Counted from the first letter of the stretch, positions 9,249-22,246 are shown. The stretch: DNA of 22,588 bases from an uncultured virus (IMG/VR IMGVR_UViG_2660238316_000001) (IMGVR_UViG_2660238316_000001:62001-84588); one strand, 5' to 3'. Numbers and translations: made by a program. Notes: a model not told the origin generated them from the letters alone.

Positions 9249-10022
9249 TCAGTCCTCAGTAATTTGATTATTATGCAAACCGTGGTCGGCGGCCTGCTGC
9301 AATGACTCTCGGTGTTTACTGTCCAGAGACTCTTGTAACCTGATACTTTCATCGCGCCATCCTCTTGCCCTTTCCTCCTGATCCTGTTTAATTTTGTCTT
9401 TCAACTCGTCTAAAAAATGACGGATTTTTGTTGGTACCCCATTACCCAACTTGCCCTTATCTGATAACAACAACTGATATTTCTCAGCTTTAGGTTTTGG
9501 CAATAGTCCTGTTGTTACCGCCTGTTCAACCGTGCGTTTTACCGTTTCTTTGTCCCATCCCTCCGACACTGACCACTCCGGTGATCGGCCTGTCGCCTGT
9601 GCTGCCTTAGTCAATCGCTCATAGGCCGCAATGAAAGCCATTCGCGCACCCACCTTGTCGCCTTCCCGCATAATTGGCTGAGCAATATTCCATGCCTGGG
9701 CAATTTCATTCGTCCAGACCACGGTGTTAGCCTCATCTTGCGCAGGTAATGCCAATGCCCACGCCTCATTCGCTGAAAGCCAATCGGGCTTACCGGCAAT
9801 ATGTTGGATATTGCGGATAATATCGGCAGGTTTTGGTGAGAATCTGCCTTGGTCTGGATCAGTAAGCCAGTTGCTAAATGCCTGGCGCACTGTGTCGATA
9901 TCGTTGGCCAGCAACGCATTCCAATAGAGTTCCAGCACGGCTTTTGAAGCATCTTTGCCGTATATCGCCAGAGTGGCTTTCATGATTTCTGCAAATTCAC
10001 GTTTATCATCTAAACCCTGCAT
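9249..10022 (-). CDS. Replication-associated protein in the P/helicase-loader position
   Basis: Follows the initiator; YW..L...DIDTVRQAF...GRFSPKPADI motif resembles phage loader-like proteins; start reassigned to ATG 10022. Confidence 0.65.
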   Translation of the reverse strand: MQGLDDKREFAEIMKATLAIYGKDASKAVLELYWNALLANDIDTVRQAFSNWLTDPDQGRFSPKPADIIRNIQHIAGKPDWLSANEAWALALPAQDEANTVVWTNEIAQAWNIAQPIMREGDKVGARMAFIAAYERLTKAAQATGRSPEWSVSEGWDKETVKRTVEQAVTTGLLPKPKAEKYQLLLSDKGKLGNGVPTKIRHFLDELKDKIKQDQEERARGWRDESIRLQESLDSKHRESLQQAADHGLHNNQITED

Positions 10023-11808: not shown

Positions 11809-11872
11809 CAGTTTTTTGTGTTTTACGCTTAGCTCTCCAGCTAGCGAGCCAACGCTTTGGGCTAATAGTCAT
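11621..11872 (-). CDS. Hypothetical basic protein downstream of cro
   Basis: Begins at an exact GAGGACTGACCAATG start motif; its 3' part overlaps the opposite-strand ORF. Confidence 0.5.
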   Translation of the reverse strand: MTISPKRWLASWRAKRKTQKTATPLCPLSINANEGKSVTFQDLDLLGLCVLKGKPQCLNHPEGQQSEQIIPDPQVKSPMSDDS

Positions 11873-11889
11873 TGGTCAGTCCTCTATCT

Positions 11890-12135
11890 TTACTGATGAG
11901 CTGGTTTGGTCAGAACCAGGCTGAGATTTTCCGGATTACGGCCATAGTCGGCCGGGTTATAGGTGTATGGGATGCAGGAAGATAAATGGCACAACAGGGC
12001 AATATCTTCAGGCACACCTTGTGAACGCCACTTACCAACAGCTTGCCCGGTTCGTGGCTTACCTTTTGCAGGAAAGCGGCGGCCAATTTCCGCATTGCTG
12101 CCAATTTCAGTTTTCAAAATTTCATATAGTTTCAT
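11890..12135 (-). CDS. cro: Cro-like repressor
   Basis: Divergent from cI; GSNAEIGRRF...TGQAVGKW...GVP HTH; GAGGAGG SD; start reassigned to ATG 12135. Confidence 0.85.
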   Translation of the reverse strand: MKLYEILKTEIGSNAEIGRRFPAKGKPRTGQAVGKWRSQGVPEDIALLCHLSSCIPYTYNPADYGRNPENLSLVLTKPAHQ

Positions 12136-12151: not shown

Positions 12152-12228
12152 AGCGTAACTAAAGTGTCGGGCTCACGCAAGAGAATAACGAAAACAAAGT
12201 TTCCAAAGATGGTGTTACTTTGGTGTCA
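12152..12228. promoter_or_regulatory. oR: three 16-bp operators and promoter pR (minus strand)
   Basis: CGTAACTAAAGTGTCG (12154), CGAAAACAAAGTTTCC (12189), TGTTACTTTGGTGTCA (12213); pR TTGCGT-N17-TACGCT at 12180-12152; the same palindrome family occurs at oL. Confidence 0.8.
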
Positions 12229-12261
12229 GATTTTAGCTATACACAATATTTGGAGAATTTA

Positions 12262-12948
12262 ATGACAAGCACTCTGGCTGAAAGGGTTAGCGAACGTAGA
12301 GCGGCTTTGAATCTTAGTCAGGAAGAATTAGCCAGGAAAGCCGGTGTATCGAGGGTTGCCATAAGCAAAGCTGAGCTGGGGCTGACCAAAAATTTTAATG
12401 GTGATACGCTGTTTAATATTGCCCGTGCTCTTTTATGCAATCCAGAATGGCTTCAGACGGGAAAGGGAAATCCTGAATTACAATCCACATCCAGCGCTAA
12501 TTGGGATGCGAATGTGAAAGAGAATAAAGACTCGCATCCTGTACAATCCTATGAGTACCCAAAAATCAGTTGGGTTAGCGCGGGGAATTGGTCTGAAGCT
12601 ATTGAGCCATACAGCCTCAACGAAATAGATGATTGGGTCACTACCACCAAATATGCGGGCCAAAACGCTTTTTGGCTTGATGTTAAAGGAGACTCCATGA
12701 CCTCCCCGGTGGGGCTAACCATTCCAGAAGGTATGTCAGTATTAGTGAATCCTGATATCGAACCCACTTCGGGTAAATTGGTGATTGCTAAATTAACTGA
12801 TGATAATGAGGCTACATTCAAACGTTATATTGAAGATGCTGGCAATAAATATCTCAAACCGCTTAACCCTCAGTATCCAATGATAAAAATCAATGGTAAC
12901 TGTCGTATTATTGGGGTTGTCGTTGAAGCCAAATGGGAAAATTTATAG
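12262..12948 (+). CDS. cI: CI-like repressor (XRE HTH plus S24 autopeptidase)
   Basis: LSQEELARKAGVSRVAISKAE HTH; SAG cleavage site; VKGDSM (Ser) and ATFKRY (Lys); start at ATG 12262 with GGAG SD. Confidence 0.95.
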   Translation: MTSTLAERVSERRAALNLSQEELARKAGVSRVAISKAELGLTKNFNGDTLFNIARALLCNPEWLQTGKGNPELQSTSSANWDANVKENKDSHPVQSYEYPKISWVSAGNWSEAIEPYSLNEIDDWVTTTKYAGQNAFWLDVKGDSMTSPVGLTIPEGMSVLVNPDIEPTSGKLVIAKLTDDNEATFKRYIEDAGNKYLKPLNPQYPMIKINGNCRIIGVVVEAKWENL

Positions 12949-13718: not shown

Positions 13719-13729
13719 CTCTTTAACAA
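13717..13729 (+). promoter_or_regulatory. nutL boxA
   Basis: CGCTCTTTAACAA, the consensus boxA, about 35 nt into the pL transcript. Confidence 0.9.
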
Positions 13730-13883
13730 ATCGGTTAAGTGACATCAAACGGTCCGCGTGTACCGGTCACGGCTCAGCTAAACCACGAATCACCCACAAT
13801 TGAGAAAAAAATCATGAAGTGGACTTACCCTGCCTCTGTCAGTGTGAGGAGGTAGGTATAAGATCACTGATAACGGTGTTTAC

Positions 13884-14099
13884 ATGAATAAACCTAGCCT
13901 AGATATACAACTACAAATAAAGGAACTACTGGAAAAATATCCGAGCTTTACTTTCCAGCAACTCAATAACTGGCTGAATAAAGACGGTCTTATGCTGTCA
14001 ATTCGCACTATTGAAGAAAATCAACAGTTAGCGGGCACTGATATAACGATGAGTAACTCGGTTCCCTGTGGGAAGAACCTCAAAAGCAATCTCCAATAA
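13884..14099 (+). CDS. Hypothetical 71-aa protein
   Basis: ORF in the pL operon direction; weak SD; 3' end overlaps a convergent ORF. Confidence 0.45.
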   Translation: MNKPSLDIQLQIKELLEKYPSFTFQQLNNWLNKDGLMLSIRTIEENQQLAGTDITMSNSVPCGKNLKSNLQ

Positions 14100-14306
14100 T
14101 GGTTCTTCTGGAGTAGTGTTTGCCAGCGATGCATAAAATGCTCTTCTCTCTAGTGGCATATTTCTTACTAGTTTTTCTGCATGCGTACTGATTTCAAATA
14201 CCCCGCACTCGACACATTTATAAGCTTTGTAGTTAGAAGAATCGGTGAACACATAGCTTCCAGCGCTATCACATAGCGGGCAAGTAGATTCAAATCTTTC
14301 TTTCAT
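14028..14306 (-). CDS. Small zinc-finger protein opposing pL, 92 aa
   Basis: CPLC...CVECG; AAGGA SD before ATG 14306; candidate extended -10 TGcTATCCT at 14346-14338. Confidence 0.75.
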   Translation of the reverse strand: MKERFESTCPLCDSAGSYVFTDSSNYKAYKCVECGVFEISTHAEKLVRNMPLERRAFYASLANTTPEEPLLEIAFEVLPTGNRVTHRYISAR

Positions 14307-14397
14307 ACAGATATCCTTACTTGTTGTGGTGACAGCAAGGATAGCACGCGCCGGGCGTGGATAAATATCCCGGCAAAAGCCAACTGAGGACTGACCA

Positions 14398-14643
14398 ATG
14401 GCCACAACATCTCGTCAAAAGCGTATGGCAAAAAAACGCAATGCCCATATCCAGGCACTGGCAAAGCGTGAAAGTAACCGAGTTGAAAAAGCAGTATTAG
14501 TTTTGGTGCGGTGTAAACCGATGCCAGATATGCCAGCAGTACCCAGCAAGCCCAGAACTTCAGCAGATCCAGAGAAACGGATTGCAGCAGTTGCCCGCCA
14601 AAAGATGCGTGGTTGCAGTAAGTTACCTCGCGGCGTGCGTTAA
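14398..14643 (+). CDS. N-like early antitermination protein
   Basis: Arg/Lys-rich N-terminus (SRQKRMAKKR); small and basic; downstream of nutL boxA and directly before a terminator. Confidence 0.7.
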   Translation: MATTSRQKRMAKKRNAHIQALAKRESNRVEKAVLVLVRCKPMPDMPAVPSKPRTSADPEKRIAAVARQKMRGCSKLPRGVR

Positions 14644-14677
14644 GCATTAATTAGCAGTAAAGCAAAATAAACCATCG

Positions 14678-14709
14678 GAGCTACAGCTTAGGCTGTGGCT
14701 CTTTTTTTT
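14678..14709 (+). terminator. tL1-like intrinsic terminator
   Basis: GAGCTACAGC-ttag-GCTGTGGCTC followed by a T run. Confidence 0.88.
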
Positions 14710-14726
14710 ACCTAAAAGGAACCAAT

Positions 14727-14996
14727 ATGAGCAATTTACCAGCAATTAGTATGAAGCAGATTGAATCTTCCCAGATCCACAGCATCGGCCATGACCCAGT
14801 TAGCAACACTCTGGCGATTCGTTTTAAGTCGAAGGGTGAACCGGCAGCCCTGTATCACTACCAGAATGTGTCCGCTGATGATTACGCGGCATTCTCCGGT
14901 GCTGAATCAATTGGCTCCCACTTCTACCGCAATATCAAGCCAGATACTGATCGTTATCCATTCCAACGCATTAATGAAAAGAAAGACGGCGAATAA
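14727..14996 (+). CDS. KTSC domain protein
   Basis: SSQIHSIGHD...TLAIRF...LYHYQNV...AESIGSHFYRNIK. Confidence 0.9.
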   Translation: MSNLPAISMKQIESSQIHSIGHDPVSNTLAIRFKSKGEPAALYHYQNVSADDYAAFSGAESIGSHFYRNIKPDTDRYPFQRINEKKDGE

Positions 14997-15059
14997 GTGG
15001 CTTAACCGCTGCCTCTGTTCGCAGGGGCTTCGGCAACACTCCTTACCGTGAGGTGCATC

Positions 15060-15386
15060 GTGAATGAATACAACTATCAGCGAATGGTTGAGCAATCGCT
15101 GGAACAGTATGACCGCCTATTAATTTCGGATCCTGATGAGCAAGAGGAATTAGGCAAGCGGATTGAGTTTTTACGCCGTCATTCAAAAATGCTCGGCGCT
15201 TTTAAAACCGCTGTCAAAAATGGCTGCTTTATTGCGGGTGCAAGTACCCATTACCTTGCAGCTCTTACCGAAACAACCGCTATGGAACTCTATCTGGATG
15301 AGGTGCAGGAGGAAATATTTCTCCGTGTTGCCAAAGCAGAAAGAGCCATGGAGTTAGATGCAACACAAAGCACCTTCATAGACTAG
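15060..15386 (+). CDS. Hypothetical acidic helical protein (possibly Gam-like)
   Basis: GAGGT SD before GTG 15060; lies upstream of bet and exo; the family assignment is weak. Confidence 0.65.
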   Translation: MNEYNYQRMVEQSLEQYDRLLISDPDEQEELGKRIEFLRRHSKMLGAFKTAVKNGCFIAGASTHYLAALTETTAMELYLDEVQEEIFLRVAKAERAMELDATQSTFID

Positions 15387-15404
15387 GAATAATAATCGCG
15401 ATAA

Positions 15405-16055
15405 TTATTTGATAGCCTTTTCAATGAAAATTGCTCTGCAATTAGCAAGGAATTCATTCTTTGTTGCTATTGGATCTGCTTTAATCTCAGCCCCCATTTC
15501 TGGGTTAGCCTTAGCCTGATTCAATATCGATCTTAAATAGTAATAAGCCGATTTATTAAATTCAGCATCAGCAGATTTTCCTATTTTTTTATTGAAATCA
15601 TCCCAAACGCTAACGCCTGCGGCGATAGCAAGCTCGTCTGATTTTCCTTCACTGAAATAAGCTTTTAGTGTTTGAAAACCGGCAAGGCAGTTTGTATCTA
15701 ATATCGTTAGAGTCTTATACCAAGATGCCTCTGATTCTTTGCCTTCACATCCAGTCAGACGATACTCACTTTTCTCATTCTTAGAAAGATCTGAACTCAC
15801 GTAGATAGTTTTGTGTTGAGTATAAGCAAAGGGAATGAAATCAGCCTCTTGACTATTTTCCCCTGTAATACGGACCTCACCACAAACAAACGTTTCGCCG
15901 GTAGAGTTGGTTGCTTCAGTGATTGACCGATATTCCACTGTTTTCGGGTTCTGCATGCCTTCACGCATCACCTTTTCCATGGCTGGAATATCTACAGCAA
16001 ATGCTGATGGAATACTAAGAATTGATGCTAATAAAACTACAAGTTGTCTTTTCAT
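15405..16055 (-). CDS. Exported protein with Sec signal peptide (moron, opposite orientation)
   Basis: MKRQLVVLLASILSIPSAFA signal peptide, VCGEV motif, AAGG SD, AT-rich. Confidence 0.85.
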   Translation of the reverse strand: MKRQLVVLLASILSIPSAFAVDIPAMEKVMREGMQNPKTVEYRSITEATNSTGETFVCGEVRITGENSQEADFIPFAYTQHKTIYVSSDLSKNEKSEYRLTGCEGKESEASWYKTLTILDTNCLAGFQTLKAYFSEGKSDELAIAAGVSVWDDFNKKIGKSADAEFNKSAYYYLRSILNQAKANPEMGAEIKADPIATKNEFLANCRAIFIEKAIK

Positions 16056-16080
16056 ACCTTTTCTTACTTATCCATATCCT

Positions 16081-16114
16081 AAAAGAGAAAAGCCCCAGCG
16101 ATTAAGCCGGGGCT
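16081..16114 (-). terminator. Intrinsic terminator on the strand antisense to the pL operon
   Basis: AGCCCCGGC-ttaatc-GCTGGGGCT-TTTCTCTTTT; the stem needs a G.U pair present only on the minus strand. Confidence 0.72.
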
Positions 16115-16168
16115 ATCCCAGGAGTGCGGGACCAACCGCAAACCTACTGAGGACTGAACAATAACCAC
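16081..16168 (-). ncRNA. Second candidate small RNA antisense to the shared start motif
   Basis: Contains UUAUUGUUCAGUCCUCAGUAGG and a hairpin with loop UUGGUC ahead of the terminator; only a weak promoter is visible (TTGGTC-N16-AATAAT). Confidence 0.4.
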
Positions 16169-16223
16169 GAGGATTATTATCAGCGTGGTTGAGTGACCAA
16201 ACCCAACCATGGGAAAGCATACC

Positions 16224-16373
16224 ATGACTATTGAATTCATCAAGAAACTCCAATACCGCCACCGCGTTACCGGCGACGACTTCAACCTATATCCCAAACA
16301 ATCTGGCCTGAAATTCTTCTTCGCCTGTGTTTTAGGCGCGTTCATGTTTCTGGCTATCGCTGTCAAAATCTGA
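16224..16373 (+). CDS. Small 49-aa protein with a C-terminal TM segment (absent from the ORF track)
   Basis: MTIEFIKKLQYRHRVTGDDFNLYPKQSGLKFFFACVLGAFMFLAIAVKI; its stop abuts the bet SD. Confidence 0.7.
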   Translation: MTIEFIKKLQYRHRVTGDDFNLYPKQSGLKFFFACVLGAFMFLAIAVKI

Positions 16374-16383
16374 GGGCTGACCA

Positions 16384-17229
16384 ATGACCACCCAAGCAGT
16401 AACAACCAGTAATCTCCCGCCCGCCGTGGTTGGGTTGAATATTGACGAACCAACGTGGAACGCGCTGAAAAACAGTATTTACCCTGGCGCTAAAGATGAT
16501 TCAGTCATCATGGCGGTGAGTTATTGCCGCGCCCGCCAGTTAGATCCACTGATGAAACCCGTTCATTTAGTTCCTATGAGCGTGAAAGATGCGGTAAGTG
16601 GTAAATATGAAATGCGTGATGTGGTGATGCCCGGTGTTGGGCTCTATCGCATACAGGCAGACCGCTCTGGTAACTATGCCGGTGCACAGGAACCCGAATT
16701 TGGCCCTGACCTCACACAAGTTTTTAACGGAGTAGAAATTACTTTCCCTCAGTGGTGCAAATACACCCTGAGCAAACTGATGCCTAACGGCACTATTGTG
16801 GAGTTCAGTGCGAAGGAATATTGGCTGGAGAACTATGCGACCGCTGGCCGCGATACCCAAGCACCCAATGCCATGTGGAAAAAGCGGCCTTATGGGCAAT
16901 TAGCCAAGTGCGCCGAAGCGCAGGCACTGCGTAAAGGGTGGCCGGAAATTGGTCAGCAGCCAACAGCAGAAGAAATGGAAGGTAAAAGTCTTGATGTGAA
17001 TGAAGGTAAAGAACACAGCCAAGGCAGCCAGCAACCAAGCCAGCCGCAGGCACTACCAGAATATAGCGCGGAACAATTTCAACGCGCACTTGCTGACTGG
17101 ACAACGCTGATCAACAAGGGCAAGAAAACTGCCGCGCAAATCATCAACACCATCGAAAGTAAATACACCCTCACCTCGGCACAAATCAAAACTATCGAAT
17201 ATCTGGAGGCAGAAGATGCAAATCATTAA
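16384..17229 (+). CDS. bet: Phage single-strand annealing recombinase Bet (RecT family)
   Basis: YCRARQLDPLMKPVHLVP, GLYRIQADRSG, MWKKRPYGQLAKCAEAQALRKGWP. Confidence 0.93.
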   Translation: MTTQAVTTSNLPPAVVGLNIDEPTWNALKNSIYPGAKDDSVIMAVSYCRARQLDPLMKPVHLVPMSVKDAVSGKYEMRDVVMPGVGLYRIQADRSGNYAGAQEPEFGPDLTQVFNGVEITFPQWCKYTLSKLMPNGTIVEFSAKEYWLENYATAGRDTQAPNAMWKKRPYGQLAKCAEAQALRKGWPEIGQQPTAEEMEGKSLDVNEGKEHSQGSQQPSQPQALPEYSAEQFQRALADWTTLINKGKKTAAQIINTIESKYTLTSAQIKTIEYLEAEDANH

Positions 17230-18820
17230 TGTCCAGCAAGGCACGCCAGAATGGCACGCCTTACGCAGTCGCCATTTCACTGCCAGCGAAGCCCCGGTAA
17301 TGATGGCAGCCTCCAGTAAAATGCGCCGCGATGAATTGCTGAACATGAAGGCCACCGGCTCGGAACGGGAAATCAGCGATTGGGTACAAACCAACTTGTT
17401 CGATAAAGGCCACGCGCAAGAAGCCACCGCGCGGGTCATCGTAGAATCTATGATCGGTACCGAATTATTCCCTGCAACCGCCATCGATGATGATGGCTAT
17501 TTGTTGGCTTCCTTTGATGGCATGACCATGATGGAAGATGTGTTGTTTGAACACAAAATGTGGAATGCCACACTGGCGCTGGCGGTGAAAAATAAAGACT
17601 TGCCGCCAGAGTATTACTGGCAGTTAGAACAGCAACTTTTAGTGAGTGAGTCCGAAAAGGTCATTTTTGTGGTATCAGATGGCACTGAGGATAACTTTGT
17701 GTGGATGGAGTATTTACCGGTACCTGGTCGCCGTGAAGCTTTGATGGCGGGTTGGCAGCAATTTGAACAGGATTTGAACGGTTACACAGCCCCTGAGATA
17801 AAAGACATACCGCAAGGTAAAGCCTTAATGCGCCTCCCTGCCCTATTGGTGGAGATAGAGGGCGCGGTAAAAGAATCAAACCTGACTGTTTACCAGAATC
17901 AAGCGTTGGCTTTTATTCAATCCATCAACACTAATCTGGTGACCGATCAGGACTTCGCTGACGCAGAAGAAACCGTTAAGTTCTGTGAAAAAGCAGAGAA
18001 AGAGCTGGATCTGATTAAACAACAGGCACTGTCTAAGACTGAGCAGATTGATCTACTTTTCCGCACCATTGATACCTTGCGCGATGAAATGCGAAACAAA
18101 CGGCTAGACCTGTCAAAACTCGTTAAGTTGCGCAAAGAAGCTATTCGCCTTGAAATACTGAATAAGGTAAAAGCCGCTCTTGCTGAGCACATTGCCAGTA
18201 TCAATAAACAGTTGGCTATTGTCACTCTACCTACTATCCCGGCTGATTTTGCCACTGCTATCAAAGGCAAGAAAACCCTCACCTCTTTGCAGAGTGCAGC
18301 CAACGATGAACTGGCACGCGCCAAGATAGCTGCTAACCAATTAGGTGAGAAATATCAGTCCAACTTAGTGCTATTTGCTGATATTGAACCGGCTTATAAA
18401 AATCTGTTCGCTGACATCAACCAGATAATTGCCCTTGAGCACGAACATCTGGCGCTGATGATTGATCAACGCATTACCAGGCAAAAACAGATTGAGGAAC
18501 AGCACAGACAGCAGGAAGCATTGCGGCTTGATGAATTGAAAAAACAACAACAGGCAGTGCCAGTGTCCACTACAGAAACAGTCACCGCAAGTACGGATGC
18601 AACAGTCCATCAGTCGTTACACCCTGCGGGATCGGTTAACTTCCCTAAACAACTGGGCGGATCGGTAAATACGCCACTAACAGACAAGCCAGCTAATTGG
18701 ATTGCCCAAATTGATGCTGATTTAGTGGCGGCAGGAATTGAGCTTACTACTGAAACAGTTAACCGCCTGTACAACGCGGTAAAAGCTGGCCGGATCCGCT
18801 ATTTCTCTATCACGCAGTAA
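17216..18820 (+). CDS. YqaJ/lambda-exonuclease family protein with long helical C-terminal extension
   Basis: QGTPEWHALR...FTASE...LLASFDG...FEHK...YYWQLEQQL; overlaps the end of bet. Confidence 0.9.
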   Translation: MQIINVQQGTPEWHALRSRHFTASEAPVMMAASSKMRRDELLNMKATGSEREISDWVQTNLFDKGHAQEATARVIVESMIGTELFPATAIDDDGYLLASFDGMTMMEDVLFEHKMWNATLALAVKNKDLPPEYYWQLEQQLLVSESEKVIFVVSDGTEDNFVWMEYLPVPGRREALMAGWQQFEQDLNGYTAPEIKDIPQGKALMRLPALLVEIEGAVKESNLTVYQNQALAFIQSINTNLVTDQDFADAEETVKFCEKAEKELDLIKQQALSKTEQIDLLFRTIDTLRDEMRNKRLDLSKLVKLRKEAIRLEILNKVKAALAEHIASINKQLAIVTLPTIPADFATAIKGKKTLTSLQSAANDELARAKIAANQLGEKYQSNLVLFADIEPAYKNLFADINQIIALEHEHLALMIDQRITRQKQIEEQHRQQEALRLDELKKQQQAVPVSTTETVTASTDATVHQSLHPAGSVNFPKQLGGSVNTPLTDKPANWIAQIDADLVAAGIELTTETVNRLYNAVKAGRIRYFSITQ

Positions 18821-20429: not shown

Positions 20430-20549
20430 CCATATCCGACCGTAGCATTCGATAGCAGTATCACTAAAACATAGCCCCTTACCACTCTAGACCAAACGAC
20501 CATAATAGGGCGTAACATCTTTGCGCCCTTTCCTACTGAGGAAAGACCA

Positions 20550-20819
20550 ATGACCAAACTACTGACATTAGAAGAATGGGCGGAAGAAACCTACCGCAGC
20601 AAGCAACCAACCCCCCAGACACTCCAGCGCTGGGCGCGAGGCGGCAATATTTACCCGGCACCTGAAAAACATGGGCGCGAGTATCGTGTACAGCCAGGCG
20701 CGATTTATATTCAGCCTAAAAGTTATCGGCTGGCAAAAGAAATACTTAAAACATCCCCCAGTACAAGTTCATCGTTAATAGAGAGAATTATTCATGGCAA
20801 AGAGGCCAAAAAAGTATGA
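20550..20819 (+). CDS. xis: Excisionase
   Basis: LLTLEEWA...PTPQTLQRWARGGNIYPAPEKHGREYRV, a lambda Xis-like winged helix; overlaps the int start. Confidence 0.92.
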   Translation: MTKLLTLEEWAEETYRSKQPTPQTLQRWARGGNIYPAPEKHGREYRVQPGAIYIQPKSYRLAKEILKTSPSTSSSLIERIIHGKEAKKV

Positions 20820-21903
20820 TGCCAATTTGCCAAGAAATCTGACATATCGGCGTAGAGAGAAATCATTTTGCTGGCGCAACCCAATAACTGGTTCTGAAAT
20901 ATCCTTAGGGCAAATTGCCCGGAGGGATGCCATATCTCAGGCTATTCAGGCTAACAACTATATTGAATCAACCTTTCAACCTGTAGCCCTACTTGAACGA
21001 TTGCAAGCCCCTGCCCCAACTCCTGCGGCTAAAGCCGAAGTTAATACCGTAGCGAGTTGGCTAAAGCGCTATTCAGAACTATTAAAGCGTCGCGAGCTGG
21101 CTGAGAACACCATGAAAATGAGAGTCCTGCAAATCGGATATATTAACCAAGAATTTGGCGAGAGACCGATCGAGACCGTTACCACTAGGCATATTGCTGA
21201 TTTTATTAATGCCTATGTCGATAATGGTAAAAGTTCGATGGCGGTAAATCTACGTTCTGTTTTGTCTGATGTCTTTCGAGAAGCAATAGCTGATGGTTTA
21301 ATTAGCACCAACCCTGTGGAAGCAACACGCACACCGTCACCAAAAGTTAAGCGGGAACGGCTCGACTATGCTGCCTTTTGCAAGATTTATGAGGCTGCCG
21401 GCCAACAGCAGAACTGGGTTCAACTCAGCCTAGCATTGGCGCTAATTACCGGCCAACGCCGTGACGATGTGCGGCAATTAAAAAGAAGCGATGTGCATGA
21501 TGGCAAGCTTTGGATAGTCCAAAGTAAAACTAAAATGCAGATAGCTATATCACTATCACTTCGGTTGGAAATAATGAATACCTCCGTCGGTGACGTTGTA
21601 GAAAAGTGCCTGAATAACAATAAGAGCGAATATCTCATTTGCTCGTCCAGTAGAAAATCAGGCCGGGAGCCCGGTGCATTAAATGCGGACTCTCTCACCA
21701 AAGCATTTGTTAAAGCATTGAAAGCAACGGATCTGGTTTATGACATATCCCCTCCCAGCTTTCACGAGATCCGCAGCCTGGCATCGAGACTTTATGAAGC
21801 TGAGTACGGTAAGGAATTTGCACAGAAATTGCTCGGTCACAAATCGATGAAAATGACGAATGTATACCTGGATTCGCGTAAAAATGAGTGGGTAGAAATT
21901 TAG
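20794..21903 (+). CDS. int: Lambda-type tyrosine integrase
   Basis: N-terminal arm-binding domain; TGQRRDD (R), QSKT (K), FHEIRSL (HxxR), LLGH and VY catalytic residues. Confidence 0.97.
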   Translation: MAKRPKKYDANLPRNLTYRRREKSFCWRNPITGSEISLGQIARRDAISQAIQANNYIESTFQPVALLERLQAPAPTPAAKAEVNTVASWLKRYSELLKRRELAENTMKMRVLQIGYINQEFGERPIETVTTRHIADFINAYVDNGKSSMAVNLRSVLSDVFREAIADGLISTNPVEATRTPSPKVKRERLDYAAFCKIYEAAGQQQNWVQLSLALALITGQRRDDVRQLKRSDVHDGKLWIVQSKTKMQIAISLSLRLEIMNTSVGDVVEKCLNNNKSEYLICSSSRKSGREPGALNADSLTKAFVKALKATDLVYDISPPSFHEIRSLASRLYEAEYGKEFAQKLLGHKSMKMTNVYLDSRKNEWVEI

Positions 21904-21914
21904 GCCGAGTATAG

Positions 21915-21979
21915 GATTTCGGGGAAATTTCGGGGGATTTCGGGAGGGAGGAGAAAATATCAATAAAATCAATTAATTA
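21915..21979. promoter_or_regulatory. att arm: three tandem Int arm-type sites and an IHF site
   Basis: ATTTCGGG three times at 10-11 bp spacing (21915-21946); AATCAATTAATTA (21967-21979) fits the IHF consensus WATCAANNNNTTR. Confidence 0.75.
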
Positions 21980-22083
21980 AAAAAAGACCGAATACGATTC
22001 CTATATTCGGTCTAGGGAAATGGCTCTTGGGAGAGAGCCGTGCGCTAAAAGTTGGCATTAACGTAGGCTTGTTCAGCCATACT
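21979..22083 (-). ncRNA. sdsR: Host sRNA SdsR (RyeB); the opposite strand corresponds to RyeA/SraC
   Basis: Minus strand TTAATGCCAACTTTTAGCGCACGGCTCTCTCCCAAGAGCCATTTCCCTAGACCGAATA...TTCGGTCTTTTT matches enterobacterial SdsR; adjacent to yebY. Confidence 0.92.
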
Positions 22084-22088
22084 CTTTA

Positions 22089-22117
22089 AGAGTAGTCGAG
22101 GACATGTGTTTCGCCAA
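22089..22117 (-). promoter_or_regulatory. sdsR promoter, RpoS-type
   Basis: TTGGCG-N17-TACTCT with C at -13. Confidence 0.7.
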
Positions 22118-22246
22118 CTTAGCAACAGAAGTAATTAATAACGGTTGCAAACTAATTTAAATGATACAAATTAGCCTACCAGTTAAGAAAGGTAATTATC
22201 TGTTAAATAGAAAATAAAGGCCGTAGCGATGCTCAAGTTGTCGTGC

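Follow-up and report, generated by a model that had tools for sequence, protein, structure and literature searches.

What does a leader do when it carries a copy of the start motif of its phage in which the start codon itself is missing? The question is raised by positions 16082-16223 of the window analysed here, a stretch of 22,588 nucleotides (nt) from an uncultured virus (IMG/VR IMGVR_UViG_2660238316_000001:62001-84588), which is a lambdoid prophage of Yersinia with its plus strand in the direction of the pL operon. This segment, called the module below, stands before recT in the pL operon and would be the leader of a small membrane-protein gene. From the sequence alone, an initial annotation had proposed an antisense element here, with a decoy or target site in the pL mRNA as the alternative. 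Here, we show that two hairpins of the module, T1 and hp2, have been shaped as RNA read from the minus strand, and we argue from its homologues that the motif is the mutated start of a short upstream open reading frame (ORF). The module and its right flank comprise the following features.

16082-16090, minus strand: U-tract UUUUCUCUU (an A-tract on plus), kept in the relatives found by BLAST and by pattern scan
16091-16114, minus strand: T1, an intrinsic terminator hairpin, AGCCCCGGC / UUAAUC / GCUGGGGCU on minus
16115-16120, minus strand: linker between T1 and hp2, the GGGAUA region on minus (TATCCC on plus), with invariant columns
16121-16144, minus strand: hp2, an extended hairpin of 11 pairs with the loop UUGGUC (GACCAA on plus, 16130-16135)
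16143-16164, plus strand: the flagged motif CCTACTGAGGACTGAACAATAA, with the Shine-Dalgarno (SD) sequence GAGGA, GAACAA for GACCAA and ATA for ATG; on minus, the anti-start segment
16161-16196, plus strand: remnant of the upstream ORF, ATA ACC ACG AGG ATT ATT ATC AGC GTG GTT GAG TGA, or xTTRIIISVVE*
16163-16190: inverted repeat AACCACG (16163-16169) / CGTGGTT (16184-16190), invariant in 28 protein-anchored loci of the Yersinia type
16186-16209, minus strand: hp3, GGTTGAG / TGACCAAA / CCCAACC (16187-16208) on plus, with the loop UUUGGUCA on minus
16216-16243, minus strand: candidate promoter read from the sequence, TTGATG (16243-16238), a 16-nt spacer and TGG-TATGCT (16224-16216)
16224-16373, plus strand: ORF of 49 amino acids (aa) with the hydrophobic C-terminal tail FFFACVLGAFMFLAIAVKI; its leader is the predicted antisense target

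T1 and hp2 have evolved as minus-strand RNA

T1 and hp2 were aligned from 20 distinct sequences, with one alignment for each strand (A3 and A4), and compared with a fixed structure of 20 pairs, which gives 385 cells. On the minus strand 97.9% of the cells are paired, 8 pairs show a change in both partners, and G.U occurs in 49 cells, spread over 10 pair positions. The mirror structure on the plus strand is paired in 85.2% of the cells and has no G.U cell, and the entire difference between the strands consists of those 49 cells, in which G.U on minus corresponds to A.C or C.A on plus. As controls, structures slid along the alignment were paired in 39-50% of cells, and none of 500 shuffles reached the observed number of paired cells, the number of pairs changed on both sides, or the covariation score. 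On the minus strand, RNAalifold predicts both T1 and hp2, with double changes at 8 pairs. If transitions were random by strand, the 10:0 asymmetry of the wobble positions would have a two-sided probability of about 0.002, a value that is indicative only since the sequences are related.

In T1, 100% of the cells are paired on the minus strand versus 88.3% on the plus strand, and an uninterrupted 8-pair stem is formed by 15 of 15 variants on minus versus 2 of 15 on plus. The initial annotation had described a terminator with a G.U pair that exists on one strand only, and this is what we found: the hairpin runs from 16114 to 16091, TTTTCTCTTTT follows it, and the pair 16097/16108 is U.G on minus and A.C on plus. 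Across the 20 sequences, this pair is GU in 14, GC in 5 and AU in 1 when read on minus. A canonical terminator (9-pair stem and TTTTCTCTTTT) is present on the minus strand only, and the plus strand has no U-tract. There is, in other words, an intrinsic terminator opposite to the operon strand, and it is conserved with covariation. In hp2, 96.1% of the cells are paired on minus versus 82.4% on plus, with 7 of the 11 pairs changed on both sides; the hairpin noticed earlier for its UUGGUC loop lies within it, TGCGG/GACCAA/CCGCA at 16125-16140, the loop being UUGGUC on minus. The minus strand gives the better fold for all 15 variants of T1 and all 15 variants of hp2, and for 11 of 11 combined segments, by about 6-15 kcal/mol. 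The invariance of the linker between the two hairpins comes partly from the search, as the last 11 nt of the scan pattern fall there.

A covariance model built from A3 has this element as its sole match in the 84.6-kb virus record (89.8 bits, the next match reaching 11.3 bits). Among 151 genomes, the model found one further credible, diverged member (L123, 43 bits), which has new compensatory pairs in T1; its remaining matches (22-30 bits) resemble ordinary terminators. What is supported of the antisense element as first proposed is a functional minus-strand RNA that ends in a terminator, a strand favoured by covariation and by minus-only wobbles in 20 relatives; the rest is not supported in the form in which it was proposed. 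The functional-RNA reading rests on strand-specific covariation and not on motif resemblance.

The motif without ATG is a decayed start

A start region common to the whole phage, (A/G)GGACTGACCAATG(ACC), sits on the start codons of seven genes, which are the N-like gene, the rdgC-like gene, xis, recT, the Q-like gene and two early genes of the pR operon. These genes begin at 2908, 9245, 11417 and 11872 on the minus strand and at 14398, 16384 and 20550 on the plus strand, and all seven copies have ATG. The flagged copy fails as a start motif placed on the start codon of a gene: as had been noticed, CCTACTGAGGACTGAACAATAA at 16143-16164 has no ATG, the start-codon position (16161-16163) reading ATA. 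Its reported sharing with other starts was confirmed. ACTGAGGACTGA occurs at 16146-16157, at 14383-14394 (N-like) and, on the minus strand, at 9249-9260 (rdgC-like), which makes exactly 3 copies in the window against 0.06 expected, a number reached in 0 of 100 shuffles; an exact CCTACTGAGGA is found before xis, at 20532-20542. The flagged copy had also been called the longest consensus copy, which is true of its upstream part but not of two positions, GAACAA and ATA, when it is set against (A/G)GGACTGACCAATG. Beyond the start it still matches the consensus (ATAACCAC versus ATGACCAC). GACCAA occurs 25 times in the window versus 11.1 expected, and 22 of the 25 are sense to the local genes by a hand count against the gene map; the further GACCAA announced to the right of the motif was found at 16195-16200. 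The start motif is also present in distant relatives (L151), and mosaic joints occur right after it, with recT exchanged in L001, L005, L014 and L023.

For comparison of the site among relatives, we used 45 distinct sequences of 260 nt, taken from an IMG/VR pattern scan, which gave 50 loci, and from loci fetched earlier. The site reads GGACTGA(C/A)CAATG, with an ATG present, in 16 of the 45. Of these, 14 open an ORF of 7-8 codons (MTTR[IVA]ISS, MTIKIISS, MTIVISS, MTTRATG or MTIKATG), and the other two (L102 and L100) have a longer frame. In L102 the upstream ORF continues in frame into the small ORF and gives an N-terminally extended protein; in L100 the upstream frame runs on and is ended by an in-frame stop within the small ORF. 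Sequences of the Yersinia type have ATA in all 20 cases (20/45), and the frame in the window is homologous to the upstream ORFs MTTRIISS*, MTIKIISS* and MTIVISS* of the relatives. In the remaining 9 of the 45 the motif is missing, and the small tail-anchored protein encoded downstream is another one (75 aa).

The ATG-less motif is therefore, judged by its homologues, the mutated start of a short upstream ORF that is intact in relatives, since homologous prophages carry both an ATG and a mini-gene at the site. According to the initial annotation, an ATG and a gene at this place in homologous prophages would speak against an antisense element and for a decayed start site. The start has indeed decayed, but this does not abolish an antisense RNA; it shows what the RNA would be antisense to.

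The module accompanies a small tail-anchored protein gene

The 49-aa ORF shows conservation at the protein level: 10 variants share 34 invariant residues, and synonymous changes are many. Its product, a small hydrophobic protein with the tail FFFACVLGAFMFLAIAVKI, is under about 60 aa in length, and the 75-aa protein of the motif-less group has a similar tail. Searches of Pfam, PHROGs and NCBIfam at E up to 5 placed the 49-aa protein in no family; it has no homology to known toxin families (Hok/Gef, Ldr, TisB and others), and no informative neighbour in the protein Atlas.

To avoid selection on the element itself, we fetched 28 loci by way of the 49-aa protein. Among them, 21 of 142 columns are variable in the module (16082-16223) versus 61 of 150 in the ORF, and in 19 of these 28 the module is free of differences where the ORF has 1-22. 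L050 and L051, in which the protein is 67% identical, have 5/142 differences in the module versus 33/150 in the ORF. The module accompanies a small tail-anchored protein gene in every group examined, including that of the 75-aa protein in the motif-less group, and it stays with the 49-aa ORF in the four loci, named above, where recT was swapped right after the start motif.

A BLAST search of 401 family genomes with the element found matches at E up to 0.01 in 12, six of them credible and six short or weak; of the credible ones, two have 99% identity, three have 74-83% over 86-102 nt, and one has T1 only. In Rfam 15, RyeA and RyeB (21975-22120) are the only families that pass the gathering score in the window, and a search of 15900-16500 at E up to 10 gave six matches below gathering, all on the minus strand over T1, of which the best has 16.1 bits versus a threshold of 39. 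In the named-phage database the element is unmatched, the only matches being those of recT to Klebsiella phages, and its distant form has no match there; complete genomes of E. coli gave no match to the element.

Predicted extent and promoter of the minus-strand RNA

A third hairpin, hp3, which is absent from the initial description, holds the GACCAA of 16195 in its loop. Its pair 16192/16203 is U.G on minus and A.C on plus, and the variant of L094 wobbles on minus but not on plus. The corresponding site of relatives carries GATCGGG/GACCAA/CCCGATC or GTTGGG/CGACCAAA/CCCAAC. That hp3 carries minus-only wobbles and recurs in relatives suggests that the predicted RNA extends to about 16209, with hp3 as its 5'-terminal hairpin.

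Just upstream on the minus strand, an extended -10 sequence, TGGTATGCT (16224-16216), lies over the spacer between the SD sequence and the ATG of the small ORF. The pattern T-A-T-n-n-T is present in 36 of 36 distinct sequences, always 6-8 nt from hp3, and the TG of the extended -10 in 33 of 36, the three exceptions being marked by a GTG start and TATACT; in L077 the region reads TGGTATAAT. We infer that TGG-TATGCT may be the promoter of the minus-strand RNA, with a start near 16209. The inverted repeat AACCACG/CGTGGTT, which had been placed around a candidate -10, is present and encloses GATAAT on the minus strand (16180-16175). This hexamer is not the better candidate for a -10, given that the extended -10 before hp3 is kept in 36/36. 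GATAAT is without a usable -35 and would put hp3 outside the RNA; we regard it as disfavoured only. The right arm of the repeat overlaps the left arm of hp3, and the two are therefore alternative structures.

As predicted, the minus-strand RNA of 128 nt (16209-16082) folds into four stem-loops at -55.4 kcal/mol (z = -5.68), with CCUCAGU unpaired between hairpins. The plus strand folds well too (z = -5.10).

One RNA run, X7, shows an end within the module. A 55-nt contig joins the Illumina adaptor to position 16108, within the T1 stem, at a depth of 82, and the depth is 53.7 in the contig from 16108 to about 16561 versus 11 leftward of it, a difference of about 5-fold. The end at 16108 is a discrete end of an abundant RNA, the strand of which is not given by the contigs. 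It could be a processed 5' end of the plus strand, for instance from an RNase III cut of a sense/antisense duplex.

Prophage context and left flank

The genes and the insert that surround the module are as follows.

12220-12948: cI-like repressor
14398-14643, plus strand: N-like gene, arginine-rich
15362-16081, minus strand: inserted moron encoding a 216-aa protein (15405-16055) with an N-terminal signal-like sequence; PHROG 36625, function unknown
16384-17229, plus strand: RecT
17216-18820, plus strand: RecE/YqaJ-like exonuclease
20550-20819, plus strand: xis
20794-21903, plus strand: int

The pR operon lies on the minus strand. It opens with a cro-like gene, which is followed by O-like, rdgC-like, methylase, NinB, HNH, RusA-like and Q-like genes, and closes with the lysis genes. 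Loci related to the window include those of Yersinia similis (L024) and Y. alsatica (L025), in which the module has 1 and 0 differences, respectively, in its 142 positions, and homologous proteins are named in Y. enterocolitica, Y. pseudotuberculosis and Y. ruckeri. RyeA (172 bits) and RyeB/SdsR (110 bits) are found at 21975-22120, just past int, so the prophage occupies that small RNA locus. The cI-like gene region has a boxA-like CGCTCTTTAACAA downstream of it, at 13722-13734. A strong plus-strand terminator (14677-14702, an 11-pair stem and T8) immediately follows the N-like gene, at the position of lambda tL1. A Lar-like zinc-ribbon gene is on the minus strand at about 14028-14305; the same place in L038 holds hp2 and a copy of the start motif, this second set (L038:885-925) standing immediately before the N-like gene.

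Another element of the same layout as the one studied here is found at 11860-11960 on the plus strand, antisense to the pR operon, where it faces the last part of cro and the beginning of the gene that follows. Its parts are an anti-start CATTGGTCAGTCCTCT, the hairpin CTGGTT/TGGTCAG/AACCAG (11903-11921) and, beyond this, a GC hairpin, CGGCC/ATAGTC/GGCCG; the element is probably the first antisense element of the initial annotation. In the motif-less L150, a GC hairpin and a hairpin with a CGACCAA loop lie between the cII-like and O-like genes (L150:15063-15105), the position of lambda oop, and both hairpin copies of this phage share ACCATTCAAnnTGCTAACC on the antisense strand.

On the left, the module meets inserted DNA. 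The exact T1 sequence is found in 23 IMG/VR loci, and in 13 of them 15362-16081 is absent and homology jumps from 15361 to 16082; 9 carry the insert, and L016 has a different left flank. The 216-aa gene is therefore an inserted moron and T1 belongs to the backbone, with the junction between the two at 16081/16082. In the moron-less phages, only 10 nt separate T1 from the stop codon of the plus-strand gene before it, and the moron-less joint (15358 to 16082) is present in contigs of three RNA runs. Three unrelated genes are found on the minus strand downstream of T1, two of them with the ATG 24-26 nt past the U-tract: the 216-aa gene (26 nt), a gene of 199 aa or longer at L037:1-625, on the same contig as L016 (about 24 nt), and, in L057, a Lar-like zinc-ribbon gene, about 75 nt from T1. 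With gaps of 24-26 nt, there is hardly space for a separate promoter in front of two of these genes, an arrangement consistent with minus-strand transcription that comes in from the right. The 199-aa gene of L037/L016 is a second, independent use of the insertion slot.

Discussion

On balance, we think it probable that the minus strand of the leader encodes a cis-antisense RNA which spans the small gene's leader in full, the start of the upstream ORF included, and represses by pairing. The predicted RNA of about 127-128 nt, from about 16209 to 16082, would be made from an extended -10 promoter that overlaps the ribosome-binding spacer of the small gene; it would contain, in this order, hp3, the segment antisense to the start motif of the upstream ORF, and hp2, and would stop at T1 and the U-tract. 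Pairing with the pL transcript would be most likely, because the RNA is perfectly complementary to the leader, and its UUGGUC loops could nucleate on the mirror GACCAA loops. The YUNR U-turn motif is a feature of antisense recognition loops, and loops that start with UUGG fit it. The duplex would block the start region and become a substrate of RNase III, with the outcome that the small membrane protein would be held down, and perhaps also the recombination genes behind it. By analogy, the logic of repression is most likely that of Sok on mok/hok or of OOP on cII.

Several observations weigh against this account. The independent substitution events behind the 10:0 asymmetry are modest in number, the sequences being related, and part of the sequence set was found by a pattern inside T1, which fixes some columns. 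The candidate promoter has 8/12 hexamer matches and the TG, which is below the scan threshold, and a consensus sigma-70 scan of both strands of 14000-18000 found 0 sites; moreover, the conservation of the -10 could belong to the start region of the small ORF itself. Contigs of three RNA libraries extend over the region, with mean word depths of 14.6, 20.2 and 11-54, and are strandless; the single run of raw reads (X23) contributed 0 reads. The abundant contig of X7 spans 16108 to about 16561 and not 16082-16209, and its end is predicted by neither model.

Could the same minus-strand RNA act mainly in trans on the shared start motif, by means of UCAGUCCUCAGUA and the UUGGUC loops, as a global translational brake? 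We consider this rather unlikely, though a number of observations fit it. The start motif precedes seven genes, and the longest exact complements elsewhere, at the starts of the rdgC-like gene (13 nt, 9261-9249), the N-like gene (12 nt, 14383-14394) and xis (11 nt, 20532-20542), are all at start sites and in sense orientation; these are given as exact-match lengths because long-loop artefacts prevailed in the RNAduplex energies against 33 start regions. The minimum free energy fold leaves CCUCAGU free between hairpins, and the segment is invariant in the Yersinia clade despite the dead start of the upstream ORF. Such complementarity is, however, automatic, the segment being a copy of the motif by common descent. 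The copy of the Yersinia clade differs from the consensus at two positions, relatives vary at position 16158 (A, C or G), and the motif-less group keeps its CGACCAAA loops while its phage has 0 copies of GACCAATG in 20 kb. That one small RNA, derived from a fossil copy of the motif and bearing several UUGGUC loops, switches off all motif-marked genes translationally is an unlikely extension of this idea. There may also be no functional RNA, the module being the scar of a decayed gene start at a mosaic joint that was conserved by recent exchange, with T1 as an insulator before minus-strand morons. The motif is a decayed start, mosaic joints do occur at start motifs, recT has been replaced exactly there in L001, L005, L014 and L023, morons were inserted at 16081/16082, and the consensus scan finds no promoter. 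A scar would hardly account for distant copies (74-83% identity) that keep both hairpins through compensatory and minus-only wobble changes, or for an element that is more conserved than the flanking coding sequence in the 28 protein-fetched loci, and we regard it as improbable.

The remaining alternatives place the function in other transcripts. Hairpins of the plus strand in the pL mRNA could be sites for a protein that binds GACCAA loops, similar to boxB and its N-like protein, or could be a decoy for a factor with affinity for the start motif. In agreement with such sites, hp2 and a copy of the motif stand directly before the N-like gene in L038, a sense hairpin with the loop CUGACCA is found at the end of cro (11921-11903), the second hairpin with a GACCAA loop in L150 is sense-oriented in the pR operon, GACCAA has a sense bias of 22/25, and the plus strand folds well (z = -5.10). 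The plus-strand stems are nevertheless poorly kept: 57 of 385 cells lack a pair, 9/20 sequences have a C.A mismatch two steps from the hp2 loop, and T1 has an internal A.C in 14/20. There is no U-tract, and the only boxA (CGCTCTTTAACAA, 13722-13734) is 2.4 kb upstream with no such hairpin after it, and 16056-16125 contains no boxA. Protein sites on the plus strand thus have little probability in our judgement, and the decoy or target site offered by the initial annotation is disfavoured by the same stem mismatches. Finally, the minus-strand structure might be the 5' leader or attenuator of the gene downstream of T1, here that of the 216-aa secreted protein, in place of a free small RNA. Three unrelated minus-strand genes follow T1, two with 24-26 nt from U-tract to ATG, and this would need read-through of T1. 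Of 23 loci, however, 13 have no minus-strand gene after T1, which there faces the end of a convergent plus-strand gene, and the same holds for every distant group that was read; the T1 structure therefore predates the morons, and an attenuator is very improbable.

In its layout, the locus is similar to hok/sok. As in hok/sok, the gene of a small hydrophobic protein follows a short leader ORF, here one that is intact in 16 of the 45 distinct relatives, and a terminator-ended RNA of the opposite strand would cover the start of that ORF, with its predicted promoter within the leader and UUGG at the start of its loops. Unlike in hok/sok, the hydrophobic segment is C-terminal, the gene lies inside the pL operon and no separate promoter was found for it, the Yersinia clade has lost the start of the leader ORF, and the predicted RNA is about twice the length of Sok; there is no relation by sequence or family (Pfam, NCBIfam).

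The boxB of the lambda and P22 nut sites is a short GC stem, and the loop of P22 boxB is GACAA. The module resembles it in its short GC stem and the purine-rich loop of 5-6 nt, GACCAA, and the phage has both an arginine-rich N-like protein and a boxA. Unlike in a nut site, the stem is not maintained on the sense strand (hp2 82.4% on plus, with C.A by the loop in 9/20), and there is no adjacent boxA.

Short cis-antisense RNAs of phages are exemplified by lambda OOP and P22 sar, and OOP leads to RNase III-dependent decay, as described in the part of PMC12197685 that deals with them. The predicted RNA would likewise be short, directed against an early operon, ended by an intrinsic terminator and paired with the sense mRNA (compared with the same part of PMC12197685). 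It differs in its target, which would be neither cII nor ant but a small ORF's leader ahead of recT in the pL operon, in its unrelated sequence, and in having several UUGGUC loops and an anti-start segment common to other genes. The same source, in its passage on lambda PreS (LPR1), places this Hfq-dependent small RNA between ea10 and ral and names host dnaN as its target (PMC12197685); the likeness to our element, a small RNA gene in the pL early region of a lambdoid phage, is by place alone. In RalR/RalA of the rac prophage, a small-RNA antitoxin and a toxin gene are also located next to recT in the recombination region of a lambdoid prophage, and the portion of PMC4041452 concerned describes RalA as trans-encoded, with 16 nt of complementarity, and RalR as a DNase. 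The RNA predicted here would be fully cis-antisense, and the protein is a 49-aa peptide of membrane type. For the start motif, the counterpart is SAS/ESAS of Cluster K mycobacteriophages, repeats with an SD core placed a few bases before the ATG of many non-structural genes, for which the section of PMC3203893 on these repeats leaves open whether RNA or protein is the binder. Both are phage-specific start motifs conserved across different gene families (PMC3203893, same section). The motif and the host are different here, and one copy is ATG-less and lies opposite to a conserved predicted antisense RNA, which makes that RNA a candidate partner of the kind discussed there (PMC3203893); that section reports no comparable arrangement.

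A search of the literature library for the hairpin and motif sequences gave no match, Yersinia transcriptome supplements not being covered by it, and the literature on Yersinia prophage small RNAs and on type I toxin-antitoxin systems near recT yielded general works only. If the cis-antisense reading is true, the element would represent an undescribed, well-conserved family of antisense RNAs of enterobacterial lambdoid prophages, without a match in Rfam, that controls a small membrane protein beside the recombination genes. It would also explain why unrelated morons, expressed in the lysogen, have been inserted repeatedly just past the terminator. The predicted RNA is, moreover, a testable candidate reader of the phage-wide start motif and, were the trans reading true, it would be the RNA partner that has been sought for start-associated sequences.

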